Shown here: positions 21,410-47,285 of the stretch, piece after piece
Numbering within the stretch: the first letter of the stretch is position 1
Layout: every line of letters begins with the position of its first letter
Assembly: GCA_049968235.1 (NCBI GenBank)
Contig: JBMFRC010000015.1
Location: 1-64,000 of the forward strand
Length of the DNA: 64,000 nucleotides
Direction of reading: 5' to 3'
Origin: Candidatus Hydrogenedens sp.
Lineage (GTDB): Bacteria; Hydrogenedentota; Hydrogenedentia; Hydrogenedentales; Hydrogenedentaceae
The notes under the pieces: model-generated
Seen by the model: only the letters and a program-made list of their open reading frames with translations
Database searches by the model: none
What the model was told of the DNA's origin: nothing
Position numbers and translations under genes: made by a program

Positions 21410-24400
21410 CTATTTAGCAGATAAGGTTCTCTGTTTTGAAGATGTTAAGATTTTAATAGAAGAAAAACATTTCATAAGTATATTGGATATATCTTCTGTG
21501 TAGGTGTAGAACAGTGGAACGACTACAAGCGTTAAGATTGTTCCTAAAATTAATCCTCCTACGAGGGCTTTTCCTAAACCTGAAAACATAACTGCACCTC
21601 CTGTTTTTGCGGTAGCTAATGGAACAAGTCCAAGAATAGTGGTTAATGCGGTCATCATCACCGGTCGGAGTCGGTCTTTACTTGCTTCAATGATTATATC
21701 TGTTAATTCTTTATTTTCTTTCTTCCGCAGGAAGTTAATATGGTCAACAATTACGATACCATTATTGACAATGACACCTACCATAAGGACGCAACCGATA
21801 AGAGTAATCATATCCCAATATGAATTTGTGAAGTAGAGTGTCCATGATGACCCGACAAGTGAAAGAGGAACGGTCGTTAAAATGACAAGAGGGAGAAGAA
21901 TGGATTCAAAAGTAGCACACATCACGATGTAAATTAATACGATAGCCATACTCATCGTTATTGCAAAATTAGTTAGATTCGTCTGTATTTCTTCTAACTC
22001 AATACCATAATTAAGGTTATATCCATCAGGTAATTCAAGACGAGATATGATTTCTGTTAAGTCTTTTTTTATACGGGTTAAGTCTTCTGTGTTCGCTTTT
22101 GCCCGAAAGTTAATAACATTCCTCCCATTATATCTTTTGACTACATCTGGTCCTGGTTTCCGTTCATAAGTTACTACTTGATGTAAAGGAATTAATCCTC
22201 CTTTACTGGAAATAACCATTAAATTATCTAAATTAGATTTAGTTTTTCTATCTTCCTCCTTATATTGAAGCCATACAGGTATTTCGCGTGTTCCCTCTTT
22301 TAAGTAGGGAAGTTGGGCTCCTCTCAATGCGGTATCAATGGTTTGGGCTATTGTAAAGGGATTAACTCCCTGTTCGTCTATTTGCCATTCGTTCATAGAT
22401 ACACGCATCTCCTGTTTTTTTTGTTCAACATCCATTGTTATATCTGTAAAGATGGGATTCTCTTGCAGTATGGATTTTATCCTTTGTGCTTGTTCATAAA
22501 GAATAGTATTATCTTTGCCTGTTAACCGTAAGGTTACTTCTCGTGATGTTCCAGATTCACCGGTATCTGCAATAGAGAATTCTAATTTTCCACCAGGAAT
22601 TTGAGAAGGTAAAGTATTTTTTACAATAGTCAAAGCCTCTTCTGTAGTACAAGGAGGATTTTCGCCAATTTCACCATCATCTTCTGTGTATAAATAAACA
22701 TGAATTTCTCCTCCATTATCTCCATGAAAAAGAAGAATATTTTTTATAGCAATGGCATCTCTAAGGGATTCCAATTTTTGTGAAAGTTGGTCAAATAAAT
22801 CTCTTACGCGGTTTGACTCAAAATTCTGGTCGAGAGTTACTTTTATATCTACTTCGCGTGTGTCTAATTTAATCAGGTCTTTCATACCTACGGATTTTAC
22901 AGGAATTAAATATGAGACTATTAAGAAGATAGATAAGCCAATAAGGAAAGATAATCTGTTTTTGAGAGACCATCTCAAACAAAGTTCTAATAAAAAGTAA
23001 ATTTTCTCTAATATTTTGAAACTTCCCGCTTTATCCCGGACAAAAATTAATATTTTACTTAGTGATATGAATATTTTGTTCTGCGAAATAATTTTATTTG
23101 AGGGGAATCCAAAATTTAATATCAGTGGAACAATAGTAAGAGCAATGACTAAACTTCCCAATAAAGCAACAATTAAAGGACCGCCTAATTGTTGCATAAA
23201 AATTGACATTCGTCCCGCTTCCAGATAATACATAGGCAGAAATACAACAATGGTTGTTAGTGTTGATGCCGAAATGGCTACTCCTACTTCAGATGCCCCC
23301 CGAGTAGAACTTGTCGTTTTATCATAACCTAACTGCTGATAACGGATGATATTTTCAACAACAACAATAGCATTGTCTACTAACATACCTACTGAAATAA
23401 TAAGGGATGCCATTGTTATTATATTGAGGGACATATCTGCAAAATACATAAAAATGATACCAATCATTAAAGAAGAGGGTATAGCAAAAGCAACAATAGT
23501 GGTAGGAATTATGCGATGTAAAAACAATAAAAGGACAATAAAAGCCATTATTCCACCATAAATCCCCTCTCCGAAAAGATTATTAAGTGCACGATTTATT
23601 AAGTCCGATTGGTCAAAAAATATTTTTGTTGAACTTCCGGAAAATGCATCTTCGGTTAGAATGTTATCCAGTTCTCTTTTAATACGGTCACAAACTGCTA
23701 CTGCATTCGCTTCCGATTCTTTTATCACTAATAGGACAACACCTCCTTTGCCATCCAGAGCTACCCGTTGAGACTTTTCACGAGAGCCAAATTGGACTGT
23801 AGCAATATCTTTCAATCGCATTCCATCTCTATTGATTACAAGATTTTCGATTTCTGAGAGGTTTCGGTACTCACCTGATAAACGAGCAAAGTATTTTCTA
23901 TTATTTTGAGTTACAGAACCGAGGGATATGTTTATAGATGAGGAACGAAGTGTATTAAGGAGAGAAACTATAGGGATGTTAAGGCTATTCAGTCGGTCTT
24001 GAGAAACCTCAATAAGTACTTCTTTTTCAGGAATGGGTGAGATTATTTGTATATCTGCAACTCCATCTAACCTTCTAAGACGGGGAATGAGAGATGTCCT
24101 GACCAGATACACATAATTTTCTTCATCGCCCGATTTAAAAAGACCAACTGCAAAGACAGGAATAGAACCTGAACTAAATCGTTGTATAATGATTCGTTGA
24201 ACTTCTTCCGGTAAAGTCATCTTTAATCGTTCTATACGGTCACGCACTTCTGCTGTTGCAAAAGTCATATCAGTATCAAGATTAAACCACATATTCACAG
24301 TACAACCATTGGAAGAACTGGTAGTTGCGATACTTCTTAACCCGGGGATAGTTCGAAATTCACCTTCTACGGGGATGGCTATTTGCTGTTCGACCTGTTC

Positions 24401-24574
24401 CGGCGAACCTCCGGGATATGGGATAAAACAACCTATGAAAGGACGGTCTACTTTAGGAAGGAATTTTAAAGGAATACGATACCACGAGATAACCCCTAAT
24501 ACCAGGATTGATATAGAAATCATAATCATAGTAATAGGTCGGTTAATGGCTAATTTGGGTAACGACCAATTCAT
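21410..24574 (-). CDS. RND efflux permease (HAE1/AcrB-MdtC family).
   Basis: The protein is 1054 aa with 12-TM architecture and two large periplasmic loops. The start codon directly abuts the stop codon of the upstream RND gene. Confidence 0.85.
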   Translation of the reverse strand: MNWSLPKLAINRPITMIMISISILVLGVISWYRIPLKFLPKVDRPFIGCFIPYPGGSPEQVEQQIAIPVEGEFRTIPGLRSIATTSSSNGCTVNMWFNLDTDMTFATAEVRDRIERLKMTLPEEVQRIIIQRFSSGSIPVFAVGLFKSGDEENYVYLVRTSLIPRLRRLDGVADIQIISPIPEKEVLIEVSQDRLNSLNIPIVSLLNTLRSSSINISLGSVTQNNRKYFARLSGEYRNLSEIENLVINRDGMRLKDIATVQFGSREKSQRVALDGKGGVVLLVIKESEANAVAVCDRIKRELDNILTEDAFSGSSTKIFFDQSDLINRALNNLFGEGIYGGIMAFIVLLLFLHRIIPTTIVAFAIPSSLMIGIIFMYFADMSLNIITMASLIISVGMLVDNAIVVVENIIRYQQLGYDKTTSSTRGASEVGVAISASTLTTIVVFLPMYYLEAGRMSIFMQQLGGPLIVALLGSLVIALTIVPLILNFGFPSNKIISQNKIFISLSKILIFVRDKAGSFKILEKIYFLLELCLRWSLKNRLSFLIGLSIFLIVSYLIPVKSVGMKDLIKLDTREVDIKVTLDQNFESNRVRDLFDQLSQKLESLRDAIAIKNILLFHGDNGGEIHVYLYTEDDGEIGENPPCTTEEALTIVKNTLPSQIPGGKLEFSIADTGESGTSREVTLRLTGKDNTILYEQAQRIKSILQENPIFTDITMDVEQKKQEMRVSMNEWQIDEQGVNPFTIAQTIDTALRGAQLPYLKEGTREIPVWLQYKEEDRKTKSNLDNLMVISSKGGLIPLHQVVTYERKPGPDVVKRYNGRNVINFRAKANTEDLTRIKKDLTEIISRLELPDGYNLNYGIELEEIQTNLTNFAITMSMAIVLIYIVMCATFESILLPLVILTTVPLSLVGSSWTLYFTNSYWDMITLIGCVLMVGVIVNNGIVIVDHINFLRKKENKELTDIIIEASKDRLRPVMMTALTTILGLVPLATAKTGGAVMFSGLGKALVGGLILGTILTLVVVPLFYTYTEDISNILMKCFSSIKILTSSKQRTLSAK

Positions 24575-27500
24575 TTATTTTCTTCCCCTGTGGAACATAC
24601 TCGAAAACATATAATTTGCCATAGGGATTATCCAGAGTGTTAGAAGAGTACTCGAAGAAAGTCCTGCCATAACAGTTAATGCCAGAGGTTGTCTTAATTC
24701 AGAACCTTCACCATGTGATAATAACATGGGCAGTAAACCGAGAACCGTTGTTAATGTTGTCATCAATATAGGTCTGAGACGAACCACCGCTGCCTGTACG
24801 ATAGCATCATGTGTAGAAAGCCCTCTTGAAACAAGTTGGTTGGTATAGTCAATTAGAACAATAGCATTGTTTACTACTATTCCTGCAAGAACTATAGAAC
24901 CTAAAAAAACCATTACATTTAAATTTGTATTTGTCCAGAATAGCACCAAGACAACACCAATAAAGGCAAGTGGAACAGAAAACATAATCAAGATAGGCAA
25001 CCAGATAGATTCAAATTGACATGCCATAACTACATAAACAAGAAAAACAGCTAACAATAATGCGAAACGTAAACTTTGATAGGAAGTTGATAGTTCACGA
25101 TTTTGACCACCAAGTGTAATAAAGAATTCGCGTGGTTTTTCTACTTCTCGTAATGATTCTAAAACTTCATTAGATACACTGGCTAAATCCCTTCCCTCAA
25201 TATTTGCTGTAATCAGGGCGACTCTTTTTTGCCCTATTCTTCGAATATCACTGGGTCCTGTATCCTCTATAATTCGGGCTACATCACAAAGACGAATGGG
25301 TGTTGTTCCTTCTACTATGGATAACTGCTTTAAGTCTTCTATGCTTTGTAAATAGGTTTGGTCTGTACGTACACGAATATCTATCTTGTCTCCTCCCCGA
25401 TTGAATTTGGTGGCAATTTCCCCTTGGATTTCTCTTCTTAATTTATTTGCTACTTCCATTGGAGTTAGCCCTTTTTCAGCAAGAAGTTCTCTATCCAACT
25501 GAATAAGTAGTTCAGGATACCCCGACTGTATAGAAATATCAGCATCTTTTATCCCCTTTATAACTTTTACTTTTTGAAGACATTTTCCGCCAACACTTTT
25601 TAATATGTTCAAATCATCACCAAAAATTTGGACTTCTAAATCGTTTTTCATTGTAAAGAGTGTAGGTAACGAAAAAACTATAGATTCCTCTGGAAGGGGT
25701 ACTATAGAAGAACGAATTTCATCAATAATTTTGTCTTGTATCCTTGCTGTTTGATTTCGATTTTTCAACAAAACAGTAAATGATGCTTTGTTTTCATTTT
25801 TCCCTTTACTTTCCGATTTGGAACTTTCAGTTCCCACCTGTAATGTAACTCGTTCAACTAAGGGATGCTCTTTAAGTACTTTTTCGATTCTTGATGCTTT
25901 TTGTAAAGTCTGTTCTAATTTAGTTCCTGCACGCGTTTCAAAAAGAATATTAAATTCCCCCTGTTTCATTGCAGGGATAACTTCCTGTCCAAGGGTGGGT
26001 AGTATCTTTAATGTGTAAATAAAAAGGACTACAGCAAGAAGTATGAAAATAGGTGAAAATTTCAAACTATAAGAAAGTGAAATTCTATAAAAATATTGAA
26101 AACTTTCAAATCCGATATGAAAGATTTGGAGGGGTATATAAAGTGTCCAATGGATAACTTTCTTCAAAATAAAAAACAGTATAAGTATGATGACAAAAAT
26201 AGGGAGAGAGAAAAGAATTGAGAAGAAGATGATGGGATAAAGAATAAAATTTAATATCAACCATGAAGTAAGTTTTAACAAAAGATTAAAAGGAAAGAAA
26301 ACAATTCTAATTATATCTTTGATTGTAGATTGTGAAAGTCTAAATTTGAATATATCAAGAAAATGTTTTTTAGATTTTCTAAAATGTCTTTTTATTATGA
26401 AGATTAAAGCATATAAAAACGAAGATATTGTCTTTTTCTGCTTTACATTTTTATAAAATAGAAATGTACGCACAGGATGGAAAATATATTGAGTATTTTC
26501 GGATATAAAGTGTGTTTTTGATACAACCAGTGGATTAAAGAATAAAGCAACAAACAATGAAGCAAGGAGTGAAAAGGTAACAGTTAATGCAAGGTCCCCA
26601 AAAATTTGTCCTGCTATCCCTTCTACAAAAGCCACCGGGAAAAATACCGCTACAGTCGTTAGTGTTGAAGCGATTACAGCAGAACTTACTTCTGATGTCC
26701 CGCGAATGGCAGAATCGACGACAGAATCTCCCTCTTCTCTACATCGAGCAATGCTTTCTAATACTACGATAGAATTATCCACTAACATACCGATACCTAA
26801 TGCAAGTCCTCCCAATGACATAATATTAAGAGAAATATCTCTCATGAACATGGGTATAAAAACGGTAATAATAGAAATAGGAATGGCAAAACCTATTGTA
26901 AGAGTACTTCGTAATTCACGAAGGAAAAGATAGAGAATGAGTAATGCTAATATACCTCCATTAATAGCAGAATTTTGAACTTCCTGTATAGAACTGATAA
27001 TAAACTGTGACTGGTCGCTAATGATATGAATTTTTGCATCAGCGGGGAGTGAACTAAGCAAATTCTTTTTCTTAAACAATTCTTTCCGTGATTTTGGGTC
27101 CTCAAGAGTATGTTGGCCATCAGCATCTTTAGCAACAGGTTGAAGTCCAAAGGACATCTGCTCATCTATTAATTCAGATAAACTTTTCTTCCTTTCAATT
27201 CCTAACAAATCTTTTATAAGATTACAAACTGTAACTGTATTTGAATCCCCTTCTTTGTAAATCTCTATTTCTATAGCATCTTCACCATTAATTCGGATAA
27301 TTGTATCTCTTTCTTTATTTCCCCACCGGACAGTAGCAACATCTTTTAATTTAATAGGAACTGATTTTTTCTGCACATTAGATATACTTTGAGAAGAAGT
27401 TGATAACGATTTTATGGGTAAATTGGATATCGGATTGGAATCCAGAGTAGGTATGCCAATAGATGAGGAAATAATTACATTTTTAATATCTTCAATATCC

Positions 27501-28255
27501 TTAAATTCTTTAAGGGTCCGCACAATATATTCCGTTTTCCCTTCAACTAATTTTCCCCCCGCAACATTAATATTCTGACTTGCCAGACTTTGAGTAATAT
27601 CATCTAATGACAATCCTAATGATTTAAGCATTTTGCTATCTACCAGAATTTGTATCTCTTCTTCCTGCCCTCCTTTTACTACAACCTGTGCAATCCCTGT
27701 TTCTGCCTCCAAATCACTTTTGAGTTTTCTTTGGACAGATTCGCGAAGTGTTGTTAAATATTCATTTTTTTCCTCTGAATCTAAATTATTTGGCGGAGTA
27801 ATTCCTACACGAATTACAGGGTCTAAATTTGGATTAAATCTTAGAATAACAGGTTTTTTAGTTACCTCTTTGGGTGGTTCAAATAAGTCCAATCGGTCAC
27901 GCACATCTTGTTGGGCAACATTCATATCTGTGTTCCAGAGGAATTCCAGAGTTATTTCAGAAAGTCCGACAGATGAAACACTACTAATTTCAACAAGTCC
28001 ACTAACAATACTTAACATTTCTTCAAGAGGACGAGTAACCAACTTTTCTACATCTTCGGGTGCTGCTCCCTCAAATTCTGTTTGTATGGTCAGAGAAGGA
28101 TATGAGATTTCAGGCATCAGATTAATAGGGAGTTTTTGATAAGAACGCCAACCGAAAACAATAATAGTAGTGAATATCATTAATGTTGTTACGGGACGGT
28201 ATATGGGAAAAGATATTAAGGACGATGTCGTTTGTTTTATTGGTTGTTCGCTCAC
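24575..28255 (-). CDS. RND efflux permease (AcrB/MdtB-like) with an atypical ~150-aa hydrophobic insertion between TM6 and TM7.
   Basis: The protein is 1226 aa and carries RND TM2-6 and TM8-12 blocks. There are extra hydrophobic segments after TM6 (...IVFFPFNLLLKLTSWLILNFILYPIIFFSILFSLPIFVIILILFFILKKV...). Confidence 0.8.
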   Translation of the reverse strand: MSEQPIKQTTSSLISFPIYRPVTTLMIFTTIIVFGWRSYQKLPINLMPEISYPSLTIQTEFEGAAPEDVEKLVTRPLEEMLSIVSGLVEISSVSSVGLSEITLEFLWNTDMNVAQQDVRDRLDLFEPPKEVTKKPVILRFNPNLDPVIRVGITPPNNLDSEEKNEYLTTLRESVQRKLKSDLEAETGIAQVVVKGGQEEEIQILVDSKMLKSLGLSLDDITQSLASQNINVAGGKLVEGKTEYIVRTLKEFKDIEDIKNVIISSSIGIPTLDSNPISNLPIKSLSTSSQSISNVQKKSVPIKLKDVATVRWGNKERDTIIRINGEDAIEIEIYKEGDSNTVTVCNLIKDLLGIERKKSLSELIDEQMSFGLQPVAKDADGQHTLEDPKSRKELFKKKNLLSSLPADAKIHIISDQSQFIISSIQEVQNSAINGGILALLILYLFLRELRSTLTIGFAIPISIITVFIPMFMRDISLNIMSLGGLALGIGMLVDNSIVVLESIARCREEGDSVVDSAIRGTSEVSSAVIASTLTTVAVFFPVAFVEGIAGQIFGDLALTVTFSLLASLFVALFFNPLVVSKTHFISENTQYIFHPVRTFLFYKNVKQKKTISSFLYALIFIIKRHFRKSKKHFLDIFKFRLSQSTIKDIIRIVFFPFNLLLKLTSWLILNFILYPIIFFSILFSLPIFVIILILFFILKKVIHWTLYIPLQIFHIGFESFQYFYRISLSYSLKFSPIFILLAVVLFIYTLKILPTLGQEVIPAMKQGEFNILFETRAGTKLEQTLQKASRIEKVLKEHPLVERVTLQVGTESSKSESKGKNENKASFTVLLKNRNQTARIQDKIIDEIRSSIVPLPEESIVFSLPTLFTMKNDLEVQIFGDDLNILKSVGGKCLQKVKVIKGIKDADISIQSGYPELLIQLDRELLAEKGLTPMEVANKLRREIQGEIATKFNRGGDKIDIRVRTDQTYLQSIEDLKQLSIVEGTTPIRLCDVARIIEDTGPSDIRRIGQKRVALITANIEGRDLASVSNEVLESLREVEKPREFFITLGGQNRELSTSYQSLRFALLLAVFLVYVVMACQFESIWLPILIMFSVPLAFIGVVLVLFWTNTNLNVMVFLGSIVLAGIVVNNAIVLIDYTNQLVSRGLSTHDAIVQAAVVRLRPILMTTLTTVLGLLPMLLSHGEGSELRQPLALTVMAGLSSSTLLTLWIIPMANYMFSSMFHRGRK

Positions 28256-28324
28256 GATTTCTCCCTACGGCTTTATTTAATGGATTTTACTTTTCTGAAA
28301 GGTAGAAATTTACATATAAGAAAT

Positions 28325-29500
28325 TCATGTATTTGATGTATTATTATCCGAATTCAGTATTTTTTCTAGTGATGTTACTTCAACAATAGAACCCGGCTTT
28401 AAATTCATTTGCCCTAAGGTAATTACAAGAGTATGTTCATCAATACCTTTTAATACTTCATAATAAGAACTATCTTCAAGACCGACCTGAATTTCTACTT
28501 TCTGTGCAGTAAATTGTATTGATTTGTTTTTAATTTCATTATAATCAAGTTTCTTTATATCTTCCGTATCTTTTGTTTGTGCCGTAAAAATATACTTTTT
28601 CCCACTTTCTTCTAAAACAGCATCTTTGGGTATAACAATTACCTGGGGGTGCACTTCCATGACCAGTTTTACTCTTGCAAATGCAGAATCTTTAATGCAG
28701 GTATTTTTGTCATTTTCAAGAAACTGCAGAGTCGTTTTTATTGTCCCGGATGAAGGGTCGATCGTAGGACTAATTCGGAATACAGTTGCGATAAAGTTTT
28801 CGGAAGGACAGGAATCAACTATAACTTCTGCTTTTTGATTTATATACACTCTGGAAATTTCGCGTTCAGGAATGTTTATTGGTAATACATAAGAATCCGG
28901 GTCCACAATAGAGAATACAGGCATGCCTGTACTTACCAGAACACCTTTCTGTATATTTTTTCGTGTGATTATTCCACTGATAGGTGCAGTTATGGTTTGA
29001 TTTTTTAATTGTAATTGTTGAATTTTAAGGGTGGCTTCCGCAGCGTCTAATGCAAAACGTGCATTATCTCTTTCTACTTTTGAACCAATACCTTCTTTCA
29101 AACTGTTTTCTGCAATTATAAGCGCAGATTTACATTTTTCAATATTTACCCTCGTTTGTAAAATTTGAGTTTCAACTTCTGATGTATCCAGTTTCGCTAA
29201 AATTTGTCCCTCTTTTGCATAATCTCCTTCTTCAACAAATATCTCTTCACAAATTCCCATCCCTTTAGATATTACATCTACTTTTTTTTCCGCCGTAATT
29301 CTTGTAGTAGTTTCAAAATATTTACTTATATCCTTTTTACTAGGGAATACTGCTTCAACGGGAGATGCCATTGGTTTGGTTGTATTTATTTGTGCATCAT
29401 CGTTCGCATCCACTTTTTTATTCAGTGAACAACTATGAATAAATAGCGTTCCTATAACTATTACGAACAATATCCCGAAATTATACAATCTTGTTTTCAT
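28325..29500 (-). CDS. RND efflux periplasmic adaptor (membrane fusion protein, HlyD/AcrA family).
   Basis: The protein has a lipoprotein-type N-terminus (LFIHSC) and coiled-coil, lipoyl and beta-barrel segments. It is 391 aa and lies directly upstream of the two RND permeases. Confidence 0.75.
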   Translation of the reverse strand: MKTRLYNFGILFVIVIGTLFIHSCSLNKKVDANDDAQINTTKPMASPVEAVFPSKKDISKYFETTTRITAEKKVDVISKGMGICEEIFVEEGDYAKEGQILAKLDTSEVETQILQTRVNIEKCKSALIIAENSLKEGIGSKVERDNARFALDAAEATLKIQQLQLKNQTITAPISGIITRKNIQKGVLVSTGMPVFSIVDPDSYVLPINIPEREISRVYINQKAEVIVDSCPSENFIATVFRISPTIDPSSGTIKTTLQFLENDKNTCIKDSAFARVKLVMEVHPQVIVIPKDAVLEESGKKYIFTAQTKDTEDIKKLDYNEIKNKSIQFTAQKVEIQVGLEDSSYYEVLKGIDEHTLVITLGQMNLKPGSIVEVTSLEKILNSDNNTSNT

Positions 29501-29687: not shown

Positions 29688-29776
29688 AAAAGTGGCATTA
29701 TTATAAAGTGATATAATTCATGTTATAATTGTATACTATTGTTGTGAACAATAAGAGCACAACTGGAGAAATTTAT

Positions 29777-32700
29777 ATGAGAAAATCTGTATATTTTTTG
29801 TGTTTTCAAAGCATCCTATTTTTCACAATATTGTTGACAATTACAGGTTGTCCTCGAGAAGAAGTGGGAGGTTATTTAATTGTAGAACCGACATCGGTGG
29901 ATTTGGGTTCTAATGATGATAGTGCAGACATTCTGGTATGGAAAAATACAACGACCAGTTCTATAGGTCCAATTGTTGTTGAATCCCAAATTCCGTGGAT
30001 TTCTGTGGAAGGTTGTGCTACTGTTAATGATGAATGTTATAGTTTGGGACCTTTGGATAAAAAACGCATACGGATAAGAATAGACAGGGAAAAAACAGAC
30101 CTCGGACCTAATTCAGGAAATATAATCGTTCGGGCTACGAATGCTCCTTCAACAACGGTCCTGATAACTTTAATTGATTTAATAAAAGTGGATTTTGATG
30201 CTTCGAGTAAATTTACGACAGTAAACGAGGCAATTAGATTTTTTAATCAAAGTGCAGTTCAATCAGGGACTATACGAAAAGTAACATGGGATTTTGGAGA
30301 TGGTCAAACCTCTAATGATTATAATCCAACATATTTCTATCAGAAACCCGGTAATTATACAGTTACCTTGACTGTAGAGACTGATAAAGGTATTGAGAAA
30401 AGAGTAAAAGAGAATTTTATAAATGTAATTAGTGGTAACCTTACTGTTGATTTTTCTGCAAGTTCTCAGATAGTTCTATTGGGCGAGGAAGTTCAGTTAA
30501 TAGATAGAAGTCGTTCCGAAAAAGAAAATATTATTAATCGTTTCTGGGATTTCGGAGATGGAAAAACCAGTAATGAAGTAAATCCAAGGCATAAATATGA
30601 AAATCCTGGAATTTATTCCGTTACTTTAACTGTATATACAGAGAATCAAAATAAATCATTAACTAAAGAAGGGTATATAACTGTTCAAGAAGGTGTGCCT
30701 CCTAAAGCAAAATTCTCTGTTAGTCAAATCAAACCATTTATATATATTCCGGTTCAATTTTCTGATTTATCGGAAGCAGGAAGTTCGCCTATTACTGACT
30801 GGTTATGGGATTTTGGCGATGGAAACACTTCAACAGAACAAAATCCGCAATATGCGTTCACAAGGATTGGGAATCAGCAAATAAAATTAACAGTTAAGAA
30901 CAAGTTCGGTATTAGTTCCTTTTCACTGCCTGTAGAAGTTATTTATCTACCTCCTACCGCAGAATTTTCTGCTGAACCACTTGTTTTGTATGAAGGAGAA
31001 TCGGTTTTCTTTGCTGATTTATCCATAAAGGGGACAGAACGAATCATTCGCTGGTTGTGGAATTTTGGAGATGGTGGTACCGAGACCATAGAATATCAAC
31101 CCTATTCTCATGAGAATGGGAATACAAGATATGCCTATGCACAACCCGGTATTTATTCCGTATCTCTAACGGTAAATACAAGCACAACTTCAAATAATGA
31201 AAGTAGTATTACAAAAAGTTCTTATATTACAGTTCACAAACCACCTGTGCCCCAATTAAGTGTTTCTACAAGAAGCCCTGTAATACAGAAAGAAGTGCTT
31301 TTCCTCAATCGAACAGCAATAGGAACAGAGACAGAGTTGACTTTTGAATGGAATTTTGGCGATGGGTCTCCTGTCAAAACTATGAACACTACGGATTCTG
31401 TTTCACATATTTATTCAGAAGCCGGAGTTTATGATGTTACATTAAAGGTAAAAACGCCATTAAAAACATTCGAAAGTGAACCTGTTAAAGTTTATGTAGA
31501 TGCTCCACCTATTCCAGATTTTGAGTATACCCCCAAACGGATAACAGTAGAAGATTTAGTACAGTTTACGGATTTGTCTAACTCTGAAGGAACTCGACCT
31601 ATAATAGGTTGGGTATGGTCATTTGGCGATGGTTCTGGTGTATCAACCATGCAAAACCCAACACATCGCTTTGAAAGTCCCGGAAAATATAAAGTAGAGT
31701 TGTATTTAGTATTTACCCATTCCAAGAGTGGAGAGCAACTTAAAACATCTGCAGTTTCAAAAACATTGACCATCGGTTCTGCAATTCCTCCAACAGCCGG
31801 ATTTAAAATTGAAAGTCCTTGTGCCATTGTAGGAAGTGAAGTAAAGTTTTACGACCAATCAAAAACGGGAACAGCACCCATTGTCAGTTGGGAATGGGAT
31901 TTTGGTGATGGTGAAACTTCAAATGACCCATCACCAATACATGTATATTCTACTCCAGGAACTTATACCGTAAAATTAAAAGTTCAAACAGAAGGGGGAC
32001 TTGAATCAGAAGTCGTAAAACAAGATTGCATAGACGTAAGTAATTATGCAAGTCCTTTAGATATATTTGTAAGAGAACGCGACTCTGAATATACATGGAC
32101 AACGCCGGTAGAATATCCTGTAAATTATACCTCAGGTTCAGTTTCTATACGATTAGCGACCGCATATATAACGCGAATGACATCACAAGCCTGGCGCGAG
32201 GCAGATGATTTGTATAGTGGAAGAATATGGAAACATAATTTGGCCATTATTGTTCCAGAACGAAAACGAAATAATACCGCCTTATTATTCATTGATGGAG
32301 GTAACATCAATAGTAATCCACCTAATGAATCAGAAAGACTGTTCTTTGGTGAACTTGCCGCTTTATCCGGCTCTGTAATTGTTCATATAGACAATGTTCC
32401 TAACCAGCCTATTGTATTTATCGATGACTACGATGCAGAAAGGAATGTTATTCTTAAGTCGCGTACAGAGGATGACATTATTGCTTATAGTTATGACAAG
32501 TATATGAATGAATATAAGAATGGTAACGACGATTATCATTGGCCATTATTACTGGCAATGGCAAAATCTGCTGTCCGTGCTATGGATACAACCCAATTTA
32601 TATTGGAAGATAATGCACCATCGGAATTTATTATATCAGGAGGTTCGAAACGCGGATGGACTACATGGTTAACAGGATTAACAGACTGTCGTATAAAAGC

Positions 32701-34540
32701 AATAGCTCCACTTGTTATAGATGTCCTGAATATGGACAAGCAAATGGAACATCATAAAAATGTCTACGGTTATTGGGCACCTTCTATTTATGCCTATGCA
32801 CAGATGAAAGTTTTTGACAGACTTATTCCTGACGGCGGAAATCTGTTACCTGAAGCAGAGGCTCTTCTAAAACTTATAGACCCGTATGAGTATTTGGAAA
32901 GAATGCAGAATATTCCCAAGTTTATTTTAAATTCATCCTGCGATGAATTCTTTGTACCCGATTCTTCTTTATGGTATTTCAAGGATTTGTTGGGAGAGAA
33001 ATATCTAAATTATGTTCCTAATGTCTCTCATGGACTTGGGAATGAATTTAGTTTTGAGACAGATGCGGTGCAAAATTTGTTCGCATGGTTTTTAGCAAAA
33101 ACTCAAAATATTCAATTACCCACTTTCACATGGCAGAAGGTTACAAATGGAAATGCAAATACATTACAGGTGGTTGTAAATAGCCAGTTTACATCTTTAA
33201 TAAAAGAAGTAAAACTATGGCAATGCAATAATCCATATGCAAGAGATTTTAGAAAATACAAGATTGATAGCATTGGAGTTCAGTATCAAAGTGAAATATT
33301 ACAACCTGTAACCCCGGGCGTTTATCAAGCAACGGTAAATACCCCTTCACAGGGCTATACGGCGTATTTTATTCAGTTAACATTTAATAATCCAGCAAGA
33401 TTTCAAATGGCGGTTCCGGGGCTAACAGTTCCTTCATTAGTCTATACAACTTCTATTTATATCACTCCGGAAACTTATCCTGAATACACCTCGGAGAGAT
33501 ACACAAATTACAAATATCCATATTTAGTTCTTCGTGGTTCTCCTTACGAAATGGGTAGAGACTATGGAGATTTAATGAGAAATGAAATCATAAACCATGC
33601 TAATTATGTGTTGAGCAATTTAGGGAGATTTGGTGTTACTCAGACAAATCTTGATAACGCGTGGAGTATTCAACAAGGAAATCTTGATGAGAGAATACAA
33701 CAAGAATTGCAGGGTATTTCAGATAGCACAGGAATTAATTATGACGCATTAGGGAAACTGCAATTGGTTGAATGCCTGAGTCCGTATTCGACCACAAAAT
33801 CTTCGGGGTCTTTATTATGGTCAACGGCTACCAATATGCCTTCATTCTTCGATTACGCCCCATTAATTCAAACTTATTCATTAAATAGACAGTTGTATAA
33901 TGGTGGACAACAAACCTACCCGGTGGTTATATTTTATATACCTGAACATGGATTTCCCCATGTGTTATTCACTTTCGCCGGAATGGTTGTTAGTAGAGCA
34001 GGAGTTAATGTGGCAGGATTAACATATGGAGATATACCTGTATCTGGTGAAAGTGTCGTGCTGAATGAGAATATGCTAACTGCATTTCGTAGTGCAATGT
34101 ATGATGTCAATAGACTAAATTCACTTATAGAATGGACGGATATGTCTTCGTTAGGTAGATTGCACTCCTATTTATTAGGAGATGGAAGATACGAATTAAG
34201 AGGTGCAAAATATCTGGTCAAATCATCATCAAGGTTGTTAGTAAGAGATAATGATACAAATGATGATTATCGACCTAATATCTTACCAAATATTGTTTAT
34301 GATGCTGATACGGCAACGAGGGCAAATAATATTTATACATTAATCCGAGATAACTATGGACAATTAGTTATATCTGGGCTATATACCTTATCACAAAGGG
34401 GAGCCGTTGCTAATTCAAACTTGATGAATCTTGTAATTGATGCTACCGCTTTGAAGGGATATATTGCTGTTGCGAATGGGACACAAGGCGCCTCTACACA
34501 AACATTTGAAATCTATGATTTTCAATCTATTTTACCGTAA
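29777..34540 (+). CDS. Giant lipoprotein. It has an N-terminal Ig-like region, seven PKD domains, a central domain of uncertain family and a C-terminal peptidase-C45 (acyl-CoA:6-APA acyltransferase-like) Ntn-hydrolase-like domain.
   Basis: The tracked ORF starts at 29729. The lipoprotein signal MRKSVYFLCFQSILFFTILLTITGC begins at 29777. Seven W(D/N/S)FGDG PKD motifs are present. The C-terminal segment YLVLRGSPYEMGRDYGDLM...ECLSPYS parallels the N-terminus of C45/AAT proteins and a Cys-Thr/Ser nucleophile site. Confidence 0.6.
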   Translation: MRKSVYFLCFQSILFFTILLTITGCPREEVGGYLIVEPTSVDLGSNDDSADILVWKNTTTSSIGPIVVESQIPWISVEGCATVNDECYSLGPLDKKRIRIRIDREKTDLGPNSGNIIVRATNAPSTTVLITLIDLIKVDFDASSKFTTVNEAIRFFNQSAVQSGTIRKVTWDFGDGQTSNDYNPTYFYQKPGNYTVTLTVETDKGIEKRVKENFINVISGNLTVDFSASSQIVLLGEEVQLIDRSRSEKENIINRFWDFGDGKTSNEVNPRHKYENPGIYSVTLTVYTENQNKSLTKEGYITVQEGVPPKAKFSVSQIKPFIYIPVQFSDLSEAGSSPITDWLWDFGDGNTSTEQNPQYAFTRIGNQQIKLTVKNKFGISSFSLPVEVIYLPPTAEFSAEPLVLYEGESVFFADLSIKGTERIIRWLWNFGDGGTETIEYQPYSHENGNTRYAYAQPGIYSVSLTVNTSTTSNNESSITKSSYITVHKPPVPQLSVSTRSPVIQKEVLFLNRTAIGTETELTFEWNFGDGSPVKTMNTTDSVSHIYSEAGVYDVTLKVKTPLKTFESEPVKVYVDAPPIPDFEYTPKRITVEDLVQFTDLSNSEGTRPIIGWVWSFGDGSGVSTMQNPTHRFESPGKYKVELYLVFTHSKSGEQLKTSAVSKTLTIGSAIPPTAGFKIESPCAIVGSEVKFYDQSKTGTAPIVSWEWDFGDGETSNDPSPIHVYSTPGTYTVKLKVQTEGGLESEVVKQDCIDVSNYASPLDIFVRERDSEYTWTTPVEYPVNYTSGSVSIRLATAYITRMTSQAWREADDLYSGRIWKHNLAIIVPERKRNNTALLFIDGGNINSNPPNESERLFFGELAALSGSVIVHIDNVPNQPIVFIDDYDAERNVILKSRTEDDIIAYSYDKYMNEYKNGNDDYHWPLLLAMAKSAVRAMDTTQFILEDNAPSEFIISGGSKRGWTTWLTGLTDCRIKAIAPLVIDVLNMDKQMEHHKNVYGYWAPSIYAYAQMKVFDRLIPDGGNLLPEAEALLKLIDPYEYLERMQNIPKFILNSSCDEFFVPDSSLWYFKDLLGEKYLNYVPNVSHGLGNEFSFETDAVQNLFAWFLAKTQNIQLPTFTWQKVTNGNANTLQVVVNSQFTSLIKEVKLWQCNNPYARDFRKYKIDSIGVQYQSEILQPVTPGVYQATVNTPSQGYTAYFIQLTFNNPARFQMAVPGLTVPSLVYTTSIYITPETYPEYTSERYTNYKYPYLVLRGSPYEMGRDYGDLMRNEIINHANYVLSNLGRFGVTQTNLDNAWSIQQGNLDERIQQELQGISDSTGINYDALGKLQLVECLSPYSTTKSSGSLLWSTATNMPSFFDYAPLIQTYSLNRQLYNGGQQTYPVVIFYIPEHGFPHVLFTFAGMVVSRAGVNVAGLTYGDIPVSGESVVLNENMLTAFRSAMYDVNRLNSLIEWTDMSSLGRLHSYLLGDGRYELRGAKYLVKSSSRLLVRDNDTNDDYRPNILPNIVYDADTATRANNIYTLIRDNYGQLVISGLYTLSQRGAVANSNLMNLVIDATALKGYIAVANGTQGASTQTFEIYDFQSILP

Positions 34541-38995: not shown

Positions 38996-41326
38996 TTATT
39001 GGAAGTAGAATGCAATTTTTCTATAACTAACGACATTAGGGTCGGTAATTTCAAGAAATCTCCGTACACGCGGGTCATAATACATTGTTAAACCAATACC
39101 AACACCATTGTTCGCAGGAACAAATACTCCTAAATCTGCTGAGACTATACCACCACGAACAATCATTTTCCCGTATGTGTTGGAATTATGTCTTGTTTTA
39201 CTTCTCACGATACACCAGATAGAGTTGTTGCTATATAGAAGACCATCGAATTGGAATGGTCGCCCCGAATCGGGACGACTTAATTCATCTTTAAACCAGA
39301 TGCGCCGTAGAGTATCTTCGCTAATCCAGTTCATATCAGGATTACAATAGTGATAAGTAGCACGAGTTAAGATATCCAGTGGCAATCCTTTTTGAATTAG
39401 GTAATCACGTAGTAGTTTTACCCCGGCTTCGTTATACTTTACCGCATGTTCATCAGTTGCATCGTAAATATAAATTTTATCCGGTTGACTTGCCCGTAAG
39501 CCATAAAAACGAGGAGTATAATTGGGGTCTGCTAATGCTTTCTGTAATTCCATACGATTAAAAAGTTTTAATTCCGAGGTAGTGAAACTAAATTGTTGTC
39601 CTTTTCTTCCAGCCACAATTTGACCTGCATCTACTGAATCAGGGTCAAAATATCCCCAACGCAAAGTTTCTGTTACATTATTAATTGTCACCTTATTTGT
39701 TCTGTTTGCATTTCTGGTATCAATGCTATATTGAGTCCATAGGGGGTATTTTTCATTATTTCTTGCACTATGGTTAACACCACGAACGGTTAGGTAATCA
39801 CCAACCATAATACTTCCCCCTGCAACGAGTGCAAAGGCATTGGTAGTTCCATCTTCTGCTTTTCCAAATTCACCCGGAGCATCCGCATAGGTTACATCTC
39901 CAACAACATAAACATTTCCCCTTACCAGTAACTGTCCTTCACCTTTAATTTTACCTGCAATAACTAAATCTCCATTTACAGCAACGGTTCTTTCTATCTG
40001 TATGGGGTCTTGTTCCGTGCCGATAAGTATGAGATTACCATCATAAGTTCCTGTCGTTGATAGACTATTGATAGCAGAATTCGACGCGGTAGGTAATGGA
40101 TTATTTATATTCGCAGGTATATATACAGAACCACGAGGAACACCGTAGGCAACACCGGAAGTTATTTGTCCTGGTGGTGGGGCTTCTCCTTCTACTATTG
40201 TATTATCAAAATGAACTCTTCCATTGGCAGTATTCAAAACCACCTGGAATTCCTCATCATCAACAATTCGATTATTATTATCATCCGGAAATGGAGCCGG
40301 AAAGTTATTAGGCACGATCCCATCTGTTTGAGCTTGCTCATCCGTAGGATAATTCATATATAGGTTTGCAAATTGAACGAGGTCCCCATTAGGAGTTCTC
40401 CCTGCATTTTGTAAGTTTGTAATTATCATGTTCCCAGAAGAGTCTTGAACAATTTTACCATTGTTATTATTAATACGATATGATTTCAGAGTTGAACTTT
40501 GGAGTTCTGAAACAGAAAATGGGGTTCCATCAGGTTTATAAACACGACCTCTTGTATATAATGTACCTGCAGCACGACTATCTGCCTCTGTTGGTCTTAC
40601 TAACATAGATTCCAGAGATGCAACCTTAATACGGTCAAAAGTATTATAATTTGCAGGGTCAGTATTTCTAAACAAGTCTAAGGACTGAAATTCAGCATGA
40701 CATAGAATACAACTTATATTATTTGCAAGAACGGCAAATTCTGTATGAGGACTCGCTCTGCCCCCAATATTAACAACCTGAACCGCTGTTTTTGCAATAC
40801 CATTCCGTCTCGCAGTGGATGTTATTGTAAGGAATGAACGAGACCATTCATCATATCTTGCAATATGAACACTTTCAATTTGTGCTACTTCTTGGTTATT
40901 GTTAGGGTCCCTTAACACAATGGGTTGATTAATCAAAGCCCAACCTCTCCGGTCATATCCAGCAGGATAGGTTTCAAAAATACCGTTCCCATTTCCCGTT
41001 TCATCAATATCTTTGGTCCCATTAAAATTCAGGTCTTCATTTATTGGGATCCCTAAATTATTATCAAGATAGTACCGATAAGAAGCCCAATTTTTTGTTG
41101 TATTTCCACTTGTTTCTATATAATCGTCCCAGAGCCTTTTTAATGCTAGGTCTATACCTGCTTGCGATGCTTCCCTGAGAATAATATCATCTGCAGAAAA
41201 ATCCGTTTCTCTCTTGTTATTTACAACTATCGCGGAAATAACTCCTATAGCACCCAAAATTACAATTATAGAAATCGTGGTAAAAATTAACGCTATACCA
41301 GATTCTTTTTTTCTTACATTACGCAT
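38996..41326 (-). CDS. Large (776 aa) GspK-like minor pseudopilin or pilus-tip protein candidate.
   Basis: The N-terminus ESG|IALIFTTISIIVILGAIG is prepilin-like and lacks Glu+5, as in GspK. The gene is the third in an operon after two bona fide prepilin-type genes. The long C-terminal region is beta-rich. Confidence 0.4.
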   Translation of the reverse strand: MRNVRKKESGIALIFTTISIIVILGAIGVISAIVVNNKRETDFSADDIILREASQAGIDLALKRLWDDYIETSGNTTKNWASYRYYLDNNLGIPINEDLNFNGTKDIDETGNGNGIFETYPAGYDRRGWALINQPIVLRDPNNNQEVAQIESVHIARYDEWSRSFLTITSTARRNGIAKTAVQVVNIGGRASPHTEFAVLANNISCILCHAEFQSLDLFRNTDPANYNTFDRIKVASLESMLVRPTEADSRAAGTLYTRGRVYKPDGTPFSVSELQSSTLKSYRINNNNGKIVQDSSGNMIITNLQNAGRTPNGDLVQFANLYMNYPTDEQAQTDGIVPNNFPAPFPDDNNNRIVDDEEFQVVLNTANGRVHFDNTIVEGEAPPPGQITSGVAYGVPRGSVYIPANINNPLPTASNSAINSLSTTGTYDGNLILIGTEQDPIQIERTVAVNGDLVIAGKIKGEGQLLVRGNVYVVGDVTYADAPGEFGKAEDGTTNAFALVAGGSIMVGDYLTVRGVNHSARNNEKYPLWTQYSIDTRNANRTNKVTINNVTETLRWGYFDPDSVDAGQIVAGRKGQQFSFTTSELKLFNRMELQKALADPNYTPRFYGLRASQPDKIYIYDATDEHAVKYNEAGVKLLRDYLIQKGLPLDILTRATYHYCNPDMNWISEDTLRRIWFKDELSRPDSGRPFQFDGLLYSNNSIWCIVRSKTRHNSNTYGKMIVRGGIVSADLGVFVPANNGVGIGLTMYYDPRVRRFLEITDPNVVSYRKIAFYFQ

Positions 41327-41336
41327 ACGCTATCTC

Positions 41337-42002
41337 CTAATTTTCTAATTTAACTATCCCGCTGAGTTCGGCGCGAATTAAGGGTCCTTCTCCCGGACCC
41401 ATTCGTTTCGTTCCTTCTAAACGAATGTATAACAAAGTAGGGGTATTTTCACTATCACTTCTATCAGGTAATAATTGAAACTCTACATTACTAATACAAT
41501 TTGCACTCCCTATTACGCGTCTATTATTCCCCTGAACCATTACTAATCTTCTTGTTAATGCCCTATCTCCATTTGTATCTTCACCTGCATCTAAAATGGC
41601 ATTCGGAGGAACTCCTTCAGAAGAACGGTCTTCATTTTCATATTGAACAAGAATCTGTTGGGATGATTGGACAAATGCAGGTGTGTTGACGGGTACGGGG
41701 ACAAAAAATCGCAAGCCCCGTCCATCATTTTGGACTTGAATTGCCTCTGCCCCTGCAGGTGCTATAGGAGGAGTAACATTCGTAGTAACTTCTGTATATG
41801 CCTGTTTTACTAATTCTGAAAGTTCATTAAATGTATTTCGCAAATCAGAATCGATTTCATTTTGAGCATAAGAAAGTGATGAGGATTTTACAGAAGATTG
41901 TAACGCCAGAAAACTCAGTAAGGAAATGATACCCATCAATGCAACGGATATAGTTACTTCTATTAAAGTAAATCCAAAAATTCTTTTTTTCATATCACAC
42001 AT
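41337..42002 (-). CDS. Type IV pilin-like / T2SS pseudopilin (GspH/I/J-like) with a class III signal peptide.
   Basis: The KKRIFG|FTLIEVTISVALMGIISLL prepilin-peptidase cleavage and methylation motif is present. The real start is probably the fourth-residue Met, at 41993. Confidence 0.7.
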   Translation of the reverse strand: MCDMKKRIFGFTLIEVTISVALMGIISLLSFLALQSSVKSSSLSYAQNEIDSDLRNTFNELSELVKQAYTEVTTNVTPPIAPAGAEAIQVQNDGRGLRFFVPVPVNTPAFVQSSQQILVQYENEDRSSEGVPPNAILDAGEDTNGDRALTRRLVMVQGNNRRVIGSANCISNVEFQLLPDRSDSENTPTLLYIRLEGTKRMGPGEGPLIRAELSGIVKLEN

Positions 42003-42011
42003 AGCCTTATT

Positions 42012-46471: not shown

Positions 46472-46532
46472 ATCTTTATGAAACTTTGTTTTACTTATAT
46501 TAACAGATTTAATGAAGAATAAAAAATATACA

Positions 46533-47273: not shown

Positions 47274-47285
47274 ATTTTATATAAA

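Follow-up and report, generated by a model that had tools for sequence, protein, structure and literature searches.

The operon analysed here encodes a periplasmic adaptor and two RND permeases and, judged by profile scores and phylogeny, falls outside the Mdt family; it belongs to a separate and widespread lineage of paired RND pumps that seems not to have been described before. Taking the evidence as a whole, we favour with moderate confidence a paired A/B exporter in which an enlarged linker of the A subunit forms a hairpin (6+2+6 topology) with an accessory role. The three genes lie on the minus strand of the window (the whole stretch of DNA analysed, 64 kb) and were delineated by ORF calling and Pfam searches:

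28325–29500, minus strand: periplasmic adaptor (membrane fusion protein), 391 aa (Pfam, NCBIfam, hydrophobic N terminus)
24575–28255, minus strand: RND1, permease 1 ('A-type'), adjoining the adaptor, 1226 aa (ACR_tran)
21410–24574, minus strand: RND2, permease 2 ('B-type' partner), 1054 aa, with a linker of ordinary length (ACR_tran)

The adaptor matches HlyD_D23 (6.6e-20), HlyD_3 and Biotin_lipoyl_2 in Pfam, and its score against NCBIfam TIGR01730 (166.9 bits, cutoff 94.9) places it in the RND_mfp family. Its N-terminal hydrophobic signal, ending in ...FIHSC, makes it a possible lipoprotein. RND1 starts at a GTG codon preceded by an SD-like AGGGAG and matches Pfam ACR_tran (PF00873) at 3e-219 (730.8 bits, cutoff 28) in four separate stretches; RND2 matches it in one single stretch (2.2e-193, 645.2 bits, cutoff 28). 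Both matches are full-length and above the gathering score, assigning the two permeases to the AcrB/AcrD/AcrF family of the RND superfamily. A Candidatus Hydrogenedens sp. MAG has an annotated protein, P0001, that is identical to RND1. The stop codon of RND1 abuts the start codon of RND2 (...AGGGGAAGAAAA TAA ATG...), with a purine-rich SD-like stretch upstream. ORFs, Pfam matches and this junction agree with a sequence-only reading of the locus, which had described an adaptor gene followed by two RND permease genes with directly adjacent stop and start codons, as in heteromeric MdtBC-type pumps; as a description of layout, this is borne out. The same reading had seen neither an outer-membrane factor nor a TetR regulator in the window, and indeed Pfam searches of the ORFs of 150 aa or longer in the 64-kb window gave no match to OEP/TolC (the outer-membrane factor of a tripartite RND system) or TetR. 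A search around 80 related loci found no recurrent neighbour family. In several known pumps the gene for the outer-membrane factor lies elsewhere, and the outer-membrane channel may be encoded away from the present locus.

Likeness to MdtABC does not extend to family membership. Identical gene order, together with E. coli MdtB as the closest PDB sequence match of RND1 (9lyq_B, 2.3e-91; alignment split around the linker), could suggest an ortholog of E. coli MdtABC, Pseudomonas MuxABC or Stenotrophomonas SmeIJK. However, the permeases are 23–27% identical to MdtB and MdtC, which are 50% identical to each other, and A and B share 28%. Scores against the equivalog models for MdtB/MuxB (NF007798, cutoff 1584) and MdtC (NF007905, cutoff 1774) are 363 and 365 bits for RND1 and 284 and 324 bits for RND2, four to six times under the cutoffs. 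A neighbour-joining (NJ) tree of 997 columns recovers an A clade (support 85/100), a B clade (94/100), A+B (91/100), MdtB+MdtC (100/100) and AcrB+Mdt (100/100): A and B are sister clades outside AcrB+MdtB+MdtC, split from AcrB+Mdt with 91–100% bootstrap, a position at odds with descent from the MdtB/MdtC duplication. Branching inside A and inside B is broadly congruent. The proton relay of HAE-1 pumps of the AcrB/MexB/MdtB type consists of D407 and D408 (TM4), K940 (TM10) and R971 (TM11); the equivalent RND1 positions are D493–N494, N1129 and R1161, and RND2 also has D–N, N and R, so that only the first Asp and the Arg of the full relay are kept in either permease and the TM4/TM10 pattern is D–N/N rather than D–D/K. 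Finally, the Mdt clade (Gorecki & McEvoy 2020), which is 'Clade B' of PMC10872679, is described as proteobacterial (PMC7015380). We consider orthology with these pumps highly improbable and, on the equivalog scores and the tree, reject it.

The adaptor–A–B triad occurs in 80 species-representative genomes from more than 12 phyla, cultured Shewanella and Alteromonas among them. A distant Hydrogenedentota genome also has it, there flanked by other genes and with a 4-nt overlap. The order expected of a paired pump, an adaptor followed by two adjacent permeases, is found in the window and in 57–64 of 68 evaluable related loci: a B-type gene lies directly downstream of A in 57, and the number of loci with a B-type partner rises to ~64 when ORF-calling artefacts and the order B–adaptor–A are counted. 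An A-type gene without a partner nearby is seen at 4 of the 68. The adaptor is directly upstream of A at 62 of 72 loci, and at 26 of 54 the end of A and the beginning of B share 4 nt. Because the adaptor–A–B operon is kept in so many phyla, A and B most likely assemble as one heterotrimer, a proposal drawn from conserved adjacency, overlap and co-phylogeny. Alternatively, the permeases could remain unmixed, as two homotrimers with one adaptor and promoter in common, giving two pumps with different substrates. The putative relay residues are the same in both (D in TM4, N in TM10 and R in TM11), such that each could work alone, and the partnerless A-type genes would fit this arrangement. We nevertheless regard it as rather unlikely, given the strict conservation of order and adjacency over more than 12 phyla, the frequent 4-nt overlaps, the single adaptor per locus, the congruent branching of A and B after an ancient duplication, and the same pattern in MdtBC, the one characterised paired system, which is reported to be heteromeric (PMC7015380, PMC10872679).

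The second feature of the operon is the region between TM6 and TM7 of RND1. All 12 canonical helices are identifiable, and two extra hydrophobic helices (A and B) lie within the linker:

26060–26518, minus strand: expanded TM6–TM7 linker, aa 580–732, 153 aa (alignments to MdtB/ZneA and AcrB/MdtB/MdtC)
26345–26479, minus strand: two basic amphipathic helices of the linker, predicted cytoplasmic, aa 593–604 and 611–637 (AF2, composition)
26237–26305, minus strand: hydrophobic helix A, aa 651–673 (IVFFPFNLLLKLTSWLILNFILY), predicted first hairpin arm (hydropathy, AF2)
26165–26236, minus strand: hydrophobic helix B, aa 674–697 (PIIFFSILFSLPIFVIILILFFIL), predicted second hairpin arm (hydropathy, AF2)
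26060–26164, minus strand: conserved 'LWxPLxxF(D/N)...Y' segment and amphipathic helix, I-alpha equivalent, aa 698–732 (alignment)
25991–26059, minus strand: TM7, aa 733–755, then the PC1 start LGQEVIPAMKQGEF (anchors P761/G766, hydropathy)

The linker measures 153 aa, compared with about 40–45 aa in AcrB/MdtB. From the Pro at the end of TM6 to the Pro of PC1, the distance is 187 aa in RND1, 76 in AcrB, 72 in MdtB, 71 in MdtC and 86 in RND2; this amounts to a net gain of about 110 aa. The insertion proposed from the sequence is thus real, but its size of ~150 residues was too large; alignments place the linker that contains it at 26060–26518 (26035–26530 had been proposed for the insertion), and alignments and hydropathy agree that it is hydrophobic and lies in the TM6–TM7 I-alpha region. 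The remainder of the extra length of RND1 resides in two periplasmic inserts:

27362–27469, minus strand: Ser/Asn-rich periplasmic insert, aa 263–298 (alignment; pLDDT <50; dN/dS 0.52)
27062–27202, minus strand: charged periplasmic insert, aa 352–398 (alignments; dN/dS 0.057)

The former is restricted to genus-level relatives and is probably disordered; the latter is kept in Hydrogenedentes A-type proteins and is absent from RND2, MdtB, MdtC and AcrB. Within the linker, aa 593–637 are K/R-rich and modelled by AF2 as helices 577–588 and 593–619 (model numbering; add 16 for aa) with pLDDT 74–78. Helices A and B make up a 47-residue hydrophobic pair (aa 651–697). The following segment, aa 698–732, aligns with ZneA from residue 488 on, has a conservation pattern of strong alpha-periodicity (index 3.63 at 97 degrees) and is modelled with pLDDT 87–93; its 'LWxPLxxF(D/N)...Y' motif is kept in A-type subunits from other phyla.

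Each of the 78 full-length homologs aligned (at least 50% identity; independent NCBI, ENA, JGI and Logan assemblies) has the long linker, with a length of 153–214 aa (median 164). An artefact, whether misassembly, a frameshifted segment or chance read-through of AT-rich DNA, might be suspected from the low-complexity sequence and from the local GC content, which falls to 24% in 26000–26499 compared with about 35% around it, a drop that fits Phe/Ile/Leu/Lys-rich coding. We regard such an origin as next to inconceivable: the frame is open over 3.7 kb of AT-rich DNA, the linker recurs in relatives at 70–93% identity from other samples (P0002–P0012), homologs of 50–58% identity have the same linker architecture, and synteny is kept in two related loci (L004 and L086). 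Compared with L086, dN/dS is 0.117 for the linker, 0.099 for its hydrophobic part and 0.048 for the whole gene; at about 0.1, the linker is under purifying selection. Frameshift or misassembly, which the sequence-only reading had named as a possible refutation, is ruled out by this value and by the homologs from independent assemblies.

Nor is the insertion peculiar to a single gene: it typifies the first subunit of a family found in many phyla. Of 78 A-type subunits, 59 have an additional hydrophobic linker region of 19 aa or more (36 aa or more in 41), and none of 57 B-type subunits has one; RND2 likewise lacks it. Helix B contains the most hydrophobic 19-mer of RND1 (KD 3.1, Hessa-scale sum −4.08) and is followed by KK. 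Helix A, containing N657, K661 and N670, has a moderate hydrophobicity (KD 1.53, Hessa-scale sum 4.69), comparable to that of TM1, TM2 and TM4 of RND1. Across the family, mean KD is 2.11 for helix A and 2.43 for helix B, compared with 1.80 for TM6 and 1.66 for TM7; both helices lack acidic residues, are not amphipathic and have high column entropy (2.0–2.1 bits). The K+R count per sequence is 2.56 over the 15 aa that precede helix A, 1.37 over the 7 aa that follow helix B and 0.44 at the A–B junction. Because both linker ends must be cytoplasmic and the flanks are K/R-rich, the pair is most likely a membrane hairpin, and a 6+2+6 (14-helix) topology is the best, if unproven, reading of RND1. 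Two added helices would keep in/out parity, contrary to the suggestion that they alter the 6+6 topology. Foldseek gives TM-scores of 0.71–0.76 (normalised by target) to CmeB, CusA, AcrB and MdtB. Searches of solved structures (PDB sequence, Foldseek) and the literature found no extra helices at TM6–TM7 of RND pumps, as had been supposed for AcrB/MdtB-type pumps.

A different possibility, tenable but the less probable, is that the hydrophobic pair does not span the bilayer and forms a re-entrant hairpin or in-plane wedge in the cytoplasmic leaflet beside I-alpha, leaving 12 true helices. In A-type relatives the extra hydrophobic length is a continuum from 20 to 122 aa, and many, for example in Shewanella and Alteromonas, have just 20–40 residues, too few for two full crossings, which suggests that these versions are re-entrant or interfacial; since parity rules out a single crossing, they cannot span the bilayer. 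AF2 predicts the entire insert as helical (pLDDT 70–83 in two independent runs; 70–81 for helix A), and DSSP on both models assigns A and B to a single uninterrupted helix (61 residues in one model; in the other, part of a run of 110). The models therefore show no turn between the arms, and their packing is probably unreliable. Covariation in an antiparallel A/B register is weak (z = 2.6, rank 5), and the moderate hydrophobicity of helix A in RND1, with its Lys and two Asn residues, also speaks against a spanning hairpin. Against a non-spanning pair, the charge-free runs in Hydrogenedentes, of 21–31 and 24–28 residues, are both of sufficient length to cross a bilayer, and helices A and B exceed TM6 and TM7 in hydrophobicity without being amphipathic, helix B ranking first among RND1 segments.

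Under the preferred A/B exporter with a spanning hairpin, the locus would encode the inner-membrane and periplasmic components of a tripartite, proton-driven RND exporter employing two different permeases, A (RND1, adjoining the adaptor) and B (RND2), with the outer-membrane channel supplied from elsewhere. The pair would stem from an ancient duplication independent of MdtB/MdtC, the operon having been retained over many phyla; proton coupling is suggested by gene order, co-phylogeny and analogy. The loop between the six-helix repeats of A would have grown by about 110 aa, to run from two basic amphipathic helices through the 47-residue uncharged hydrophobic pair to the I-alpha helix and TM7, and the pair would enter the inner membrane as a helical hairpin. 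Because its sequence varies while its hydrophobicity is conserved, and because it occurs in the A subunit only, we infer that the pair may be an accessory element that faces the lipid and renders the trimer asymmetric, again by gene order, co-phylogeny and analogy. It is probably not part of the transport pathway, and could be a determinant of assembly or stoichiometry or, alternatively, a built-in counterpart of single-helix partners such as AcrZ or YajC.

More speculatively, the family might be an obligately paired, second ancient RND lineage of more than 12 phyla that forms asymmetric heterotrimers, with a membrane-spanning hairpin in the adaptor-proximal subunit (up to 4–5 helices in some phyla) that acts in an AcrZ-like manner or sets subunit stoichiometry and position in the trimer; its members would be the first 14-helix RND transporters. 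In a survey of 6205 RND proteins, tandem permease genes were confined to the proteobacterial MdtBC/MuxBC/SmeJK clade (PMC10872679). Heteromeric RND pumps have so far come from one clade, and the A/B family would be an independent second case, much wider taxonomically and with structural asymmetry between subunits built in: a natural system for asking why there are two kinds of protomer and how their stoichiometry is set. Should the insert span the membrane, it would also break the 12-helix architecture assumed to be universal among bacterial RND permeases. Culturable members (Shewanella, Alteromonas, Neptunicella, Aliiglaciecola and Acanthopleuribacter) open the family to genetics and cryo-EM.

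Among known systems, MdtABC (E. coli), MuxABC–OpmB (P. aeruginosa) and SmeIJK (S. maltophilia) resemble the locus in their adaptor–permease 1–permease 2 order with abutting or overlapping genes, in that the adaptor-adjoining and distal permeases each form a conserved orthologous group, and in a presumed heterotrimer. They differ in that A and B arose by an independent duplication (A–B identity 28%, compared with 50% for MdtB–MdtC), in the relay (D–N/N here, D–D/K there), in the ordinary Pro-to-Pro linkers of MdtB and MdtC (71–72 aa, without an extra hydrophobic segment) and in distribution, the A/B family spanning more than 12 phyla and the MdtABC group Proteobacteria only. AcrZ, YajC and WatS1 are partner proteins with one helix each; they bind the transmembrane domains of RND proteins and are thought to tune the permease rather than to transport (PMC10710835). 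AcrB with AcrZ/YajC and WatABO with WatS1 therefore resemble RND1 in having poorly conserved hydrophobic helices added at the transmembrane domain, whereas those of RND1 lie within the permease chain, between TM6 and I-alpha, and in one subunit type only. DHA2-type MFS transporters have two extra helices between their 6+6 repeats, and EmrB and QacA (14 helices) reach 6+2+6 via a cytoplasmic connector, as proposed for RND1 (PMC13139468). Superfamily and fold are unrelated to those of RND1, and the literature searched describes no 6+2+6 arrangement in RND proteins; we know of none. In NPC1, Patched and Dispatched the TM6–TM7 cytoplasmic connector is larger than in bacterial HAE-1 pumps; there it is a soluble cytoplasmic loop, unlike the hydrophobic hairpin predicted for RND1, and these proteins act as monomers or dimers and have neither an adaptor nor an outer-membrane partner.

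The operon consists of an adaptor gene followed by two RND permease genes, all three co-oriented on the minus strand, with a divergent neighbour:

28325-29500, minus strand: adaptor, 391 aa, with Pfam HlyD-type domains
24575-28255, minus strand: RND1, the adaptor-proximal A-type permease, 1226 aa, Pfam ACR_tran (3e-219) in four stretches, GTG start preceded by AGGGAG
21410-24574, minus strand: RND2, the B-type partner permease, 1054 aa, Pfam ACR_tran (2.2e-193) in a single stretch
29729-34540, plus strand: protein of 1603 aa, carrying seven PKD domains plus a PhoPQ-activated pathogenicity-related domain

The TAA stop of RND1 directly abuts the ATG start of RND2, with a purine-rich stretch upstream; together with the ORFs and Pfam matches, this bears out the layout described in the sequence-only reading, an adaptor plus two abutting permeases. 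As that reading also stated, the window contains no outer-membrane factor or TetR regulator, as judged by Pfam on ORFs of at least 150 aa across the 64 kb. Downstream lie tpiA, secG, an EPSP-synthase-family gene and hisD (Pfam). A Candidatus Hydrogenedens sp. MAG carries an annotated protein identical to RND1; a lookup in the contig index gave no entry for the exact window protein, and relatives took its place. Closer relatives are syntenic, and in relatives L004 and L086 the 1603-aa protein likewise adjoins the operon; a distant Hydrogenedentota genome keeps the triad among unrelated neighbours.

Three further minus-strand groups lie in the window. At 45010-47273, three consecutive ORFs of ~245 aa, none with a Pfam match, sit beside a 413-aa HATPase_c_3 protein (47286-48527), forming an uncharacterised cluster (45010-48527). 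In another cluster (38996-42476), which may be pseudopilin or type IV pilus-like, a pilin-like ORF bearing a prokaryotic N-terminal methylation motif (42012-42476) precedes 221-aa and 776-aa ORFs without Pfam match. Two nearly adjacent AMP-binding paralogues with AMP-binding_C_2 domains (48602-49924 and 50444-51775) are phenylacetate-CoA ligase-like.

RND1 had been read as carrying ~150 extra residues between TM6 and TM7. The location is confirmed, as the HMMER alignment to MdtB (RND1 398-580 with MdtB 315-497; RND1 756-1218 with MdtB 558-1023) breaks at the linker, and in HMMER alignments to solved structures ZneA residue 488 pairs with RND1 residue 702. The size is smaller. Measured in an E-INS-i alignment between two invariant prolines, P575 at the end of TM6 and P761 in PC1 (the periplasmic region after TM7), the Pro-to-Pro distance is 187 aa in RND1, 76 aa in AcrB, 72 aa in MdtB, 71 aa in MdtC and 86 aa in RND2. 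The alignment to MdtB and MdtC thus delimits a linker proper of 153 aa (aa 580-732, nt 26060-26518), a net gain of ~110 aa; the rest of the extra length resides in two periplasmic inserts, aa 263-298 and 352-398. From TM6 to TM7, the linker is built as follows:

aa 593-604 and 611-637: two basic amphipathic helices
aa 651-673: helix A
aa 674-697: helix B, followed by KK
after KK and before TM7: a conserved LWxPL...F...Y amphipathic segment, the equivalent of I-alpha (the amphipathic helix before TM7)
aa 733-755: TM7

Helix B is the most hydrophobic 19-mer of RND1 (hydropathy, KD, 3.1; Hessa-scale sum -4.08) and helix A is moderately hydrophobic (KD 1.53, similar to TM1, TM2 and TM4), so the hydrophobic character ascribed to the extra region holds. 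GC content is 24% at 26000-26499, owing to Phe, Ile, Leu and Lys codons.

RND1 residues 263-298 (27362-27469), a Ser/Asn-rich insert in the periplasmic docking/porter region, are found only in genus-level relatives, have pLDDT <50 and evolve under relaxed selection (dN/dS 0.52 against L086, a 93%-identical relative); they probably form a disordered loop. Every Hydrogenedentes A-type protein keeps the charged periplasmic insert of ~47 aa before TM2 (aa 352-398; 27062-27202; dN/dS 0.057), which RND2, MdtB, MdtC and AcrB lack.

Misassembly or a frameshift could have produced such an insertion, and both are rejected on the strength of homologues in independent assemblies, the shared linker architecture in 78 sequences and dN/dS. 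Of the best 120 RND1 homologues (to ~50% identity; NCBI, ENA, JGI and Logan assemblies), all but one, which is annotated as partial, measure 1166-1256 aa. Across 78 aligned homologues the linker keeps its architecture, though its sequence is poorly conserved, and measures 153-214 aa (median 164); in most Hydrogenedentes members roughly one basic residue separates two charge-free runs, of 21-31 and 24-28 residues. Comparison with L086 gives dN/dS values of 0.048 over the whole gene, 0.117 over the linker, 0.099 over the hydrophobic part of the linker and 0.004 over TM2-6, so that selection constrains the linker, though less than the core.

A search with the RND1 alignment through one genome per GTDB species yielded 80 loci, whose ORFs were called locally and classified by BLASTP. 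All 79 RND1-like ORFs are nearer RND1 than RND2, MdtB, MdtC or AcrB, and RND2 is nearest for 56 of the 61 second-type ORFs. In 57/68 evaluable loci A is immediately followed by a B-type gene (~64/68 with the inclusion of over-extended ORF calls, borderline classifications and two loci in B-adaptor-A order), and in 62/72 an adaptor immediately precedes A; in 26/54 loci the A stop overlaps the B start by 4 nt. Hosts include members of Hydrogenedentota, Calditrichota, Latescibacterota, Verrucomicrobiota, Planctomycetota, Myxococcota, Acidobacteriota (including the cultured Acanthopleuribacter pedis), Gemmatimonadota, Bacteroidota (Balneolaceae) and Gammaproteobacteria; among the last are the cultured Shewanella sp. 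AS1, Neptunicella marina, Alteromonas sp. 5E99-2 and Aliiglaciecola sp.

Within this family, the long linker marks the A subunit. The Pro-to-Pro distance has a median of 152 aa (73-320) in A-type proteins (n=78) and 65 aa (62-130) in B-type proteins (n=57). An extra hydrophobic region before TM7 (KD19 >=1.8) spans at least 19 aa in 59 A-type proteins and at least 36 aa in 41; no B-type protein has one. Many Gammaproteobacteria and Balneolaceae have 20-40 aa of such sequence, and Hydrogenedentota, Planctomycetota, Calditrichota and Verrucomicrobiota ~48-71 aa; some Opitutaceae, Latescibacterota and Gemmatimonadota have up to ~120 aa, split among several distinct segments. The A-type proteins of seven loci (L078, L075 and L077, Opitutaceae; L068 and L069, Latescibacterota; L071, Gemmatimonadota; and L073) reach 1273-1395 aa, with Pro-to-Pro distances of 268-320 aa; their linkers contain two to four hydrophobic regions totalling 65-122 aa, possibly four or more extra helices. 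A linker-only profile from Hydrogenedentes, run against 1.84 billion representatives, retrieved 21 proteins, including MAGs labelled Planctomycetota and Deltaproteobacteria, and detected no conservation of linker sequence beyond Hydrogenedentes and a few MAGs; the wide distribution is seen only when whole-gene relatives are collected and their linkers then measured. What the A linkers share is a property rather than a sequence, and the insert is a family trait of the A subunit, not a one-off.

The end of TM6 and the start of TM7 are both cytoplasmic, and membrane crossings within the linker must therefore be paired. Family-wide, helices A and B lack acidic residues and have mean KD values of 2.11 and 2.43 (TM6, 1.80; TM7, 1.66), with column entropies of 2.0-2.1 bits (TM6, 0.57). 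Lys and Arg together number 2.56 per sequence over the 15 residues leading into helix A, 1.37 over the 7 that follow helix B and 0.44 at the A-B junction, and the segment after helix B shows strong, I-alpha-like amphipathic periodicity throughout the family. This pattern fits a putative lipid-exposed helical hairpin with both ends inside, in a 6+2+6 topology. Two AlphaFold2 runs (the window protein, aa 17-1216, and homologue P0029) give a helical insert with pLDDT 70-83, in which DSSP assigns helices A and B to one unbroken helix, of 61 residues in one model and within a 110-residue run in the other. Read by pLDDT and DSSP only, the models therefore support helicity and give no reliable word on packing. 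Mean-field DCA (129 sequences, Meff 83) is dominated by gap and subfamily artefacts; APC-corrected mutual information (99 sequences) gives a weak antiparallel signal at the A-B junction (z = 2.6, rank 5 of all centres). The hydrophobic segments of some relatives are too short to span the membrane twice, so that, for these relatives at least, a re-entrant or interfacial element has to be taken seriously as an alternative.

For the helix pair we favour an accessory or assembly role, because the element is variable in sequence and length, hydrophobic and limited to one subunit type; the pair would make the trimer asymmetric. Alternatively, it could serve as an in-cis mimic of AcrZ, YajC and WatS1, small helices that are its proposed analogues (PMC10710835). 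A 14-helix topology and a heterotrimer, if true, would raise the interest of this pump above moderate.

The operon had been called MdtABC-like, which applies to its layout and not to family membership. RND1 and RND2 share 27.7% identity, RND1 is 25.6% and 26.7% identical to MdtB and MdtC, RND2 22.9% and 23.5%, and MdtB and MdtC 50.2% to each other. Scores against the NCBIfam MdtB/MuxB and MdtC equivalogs are 284-365 bits, where the cutoffs are 1584 and 1774. In a neighbour-joining tree (44 taxa, 997 columns, CusA outgroup, 100 bootstraps), support is 85 for the A clade, 94 for B, 91 for A+B, 100 for MdtB+MdtC and 100 for AcrB+Mdt; the branching orders inside the A and B clades broadly agree. 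It follows that the A/B duplication is old and separate from that of MdtB/MdtC; the Mdt clade is described as the product of one proteobacterial duplication (PMC7015380), and a 2024 survey placed tandem permease genes exclusively in that clade (PMC10872679). VexIJK of Vibrio cholerae, considered as a known paired-permease relative, was dismissed because it combines two adaptors with a single permease. In L017, L031 and L054 (Woeseiaceae and proteobacterial MAGs), the A/B pair is preceded by two adaptor genes, a feature that recalls VexIJK; the pump there would accordingly comprise two adaptors as well as two permeases.

The A/B family and its linker appear, provisionally, to be undescribed; public databases already list its proteins under generic names. 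Solved RND chains matched by sequence (1031-1069 aa, alignments split at the linker) and by Foldseek (1007-1058 aa) all lack an insert at this position, and the full-text literature searched, with incomplete coverage, describes neither extra helices in RND permeases nor paired permeases outside the Mdt clade, in line with the novelty claimed for extra TM6-TM7 helices in AcrB/MdtB-type pumps. The putative proton relay also departs from the textbook one. Where AcrB and MdtB have D407-D408 and K940, RND1 and RND2 have D-N and N (VDN in TM4 and VNN in TM10; in RND1, D493-N494 at 26774-26779 and N1129 at 24869-24871), keeping the first Asp and the TM11 Arg. This D-N / N / R set is common to 63/79 A-type and 54/61 B-type relatives, which sets the family's relay apart. 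In L028, L036, L042, L043 and L049 (Lysobacterales and other Gammaproteobacteria), the A-type protein has D-D / K / R and its B partner D-N / N / R, so that two subunits of one pump would differ in relay chemistry. For the insertion itself, a formal precedent exists in the DHA2 group of MFS transporters, in which two helices are inserted between the 6+6 repeats (PMC13139468).
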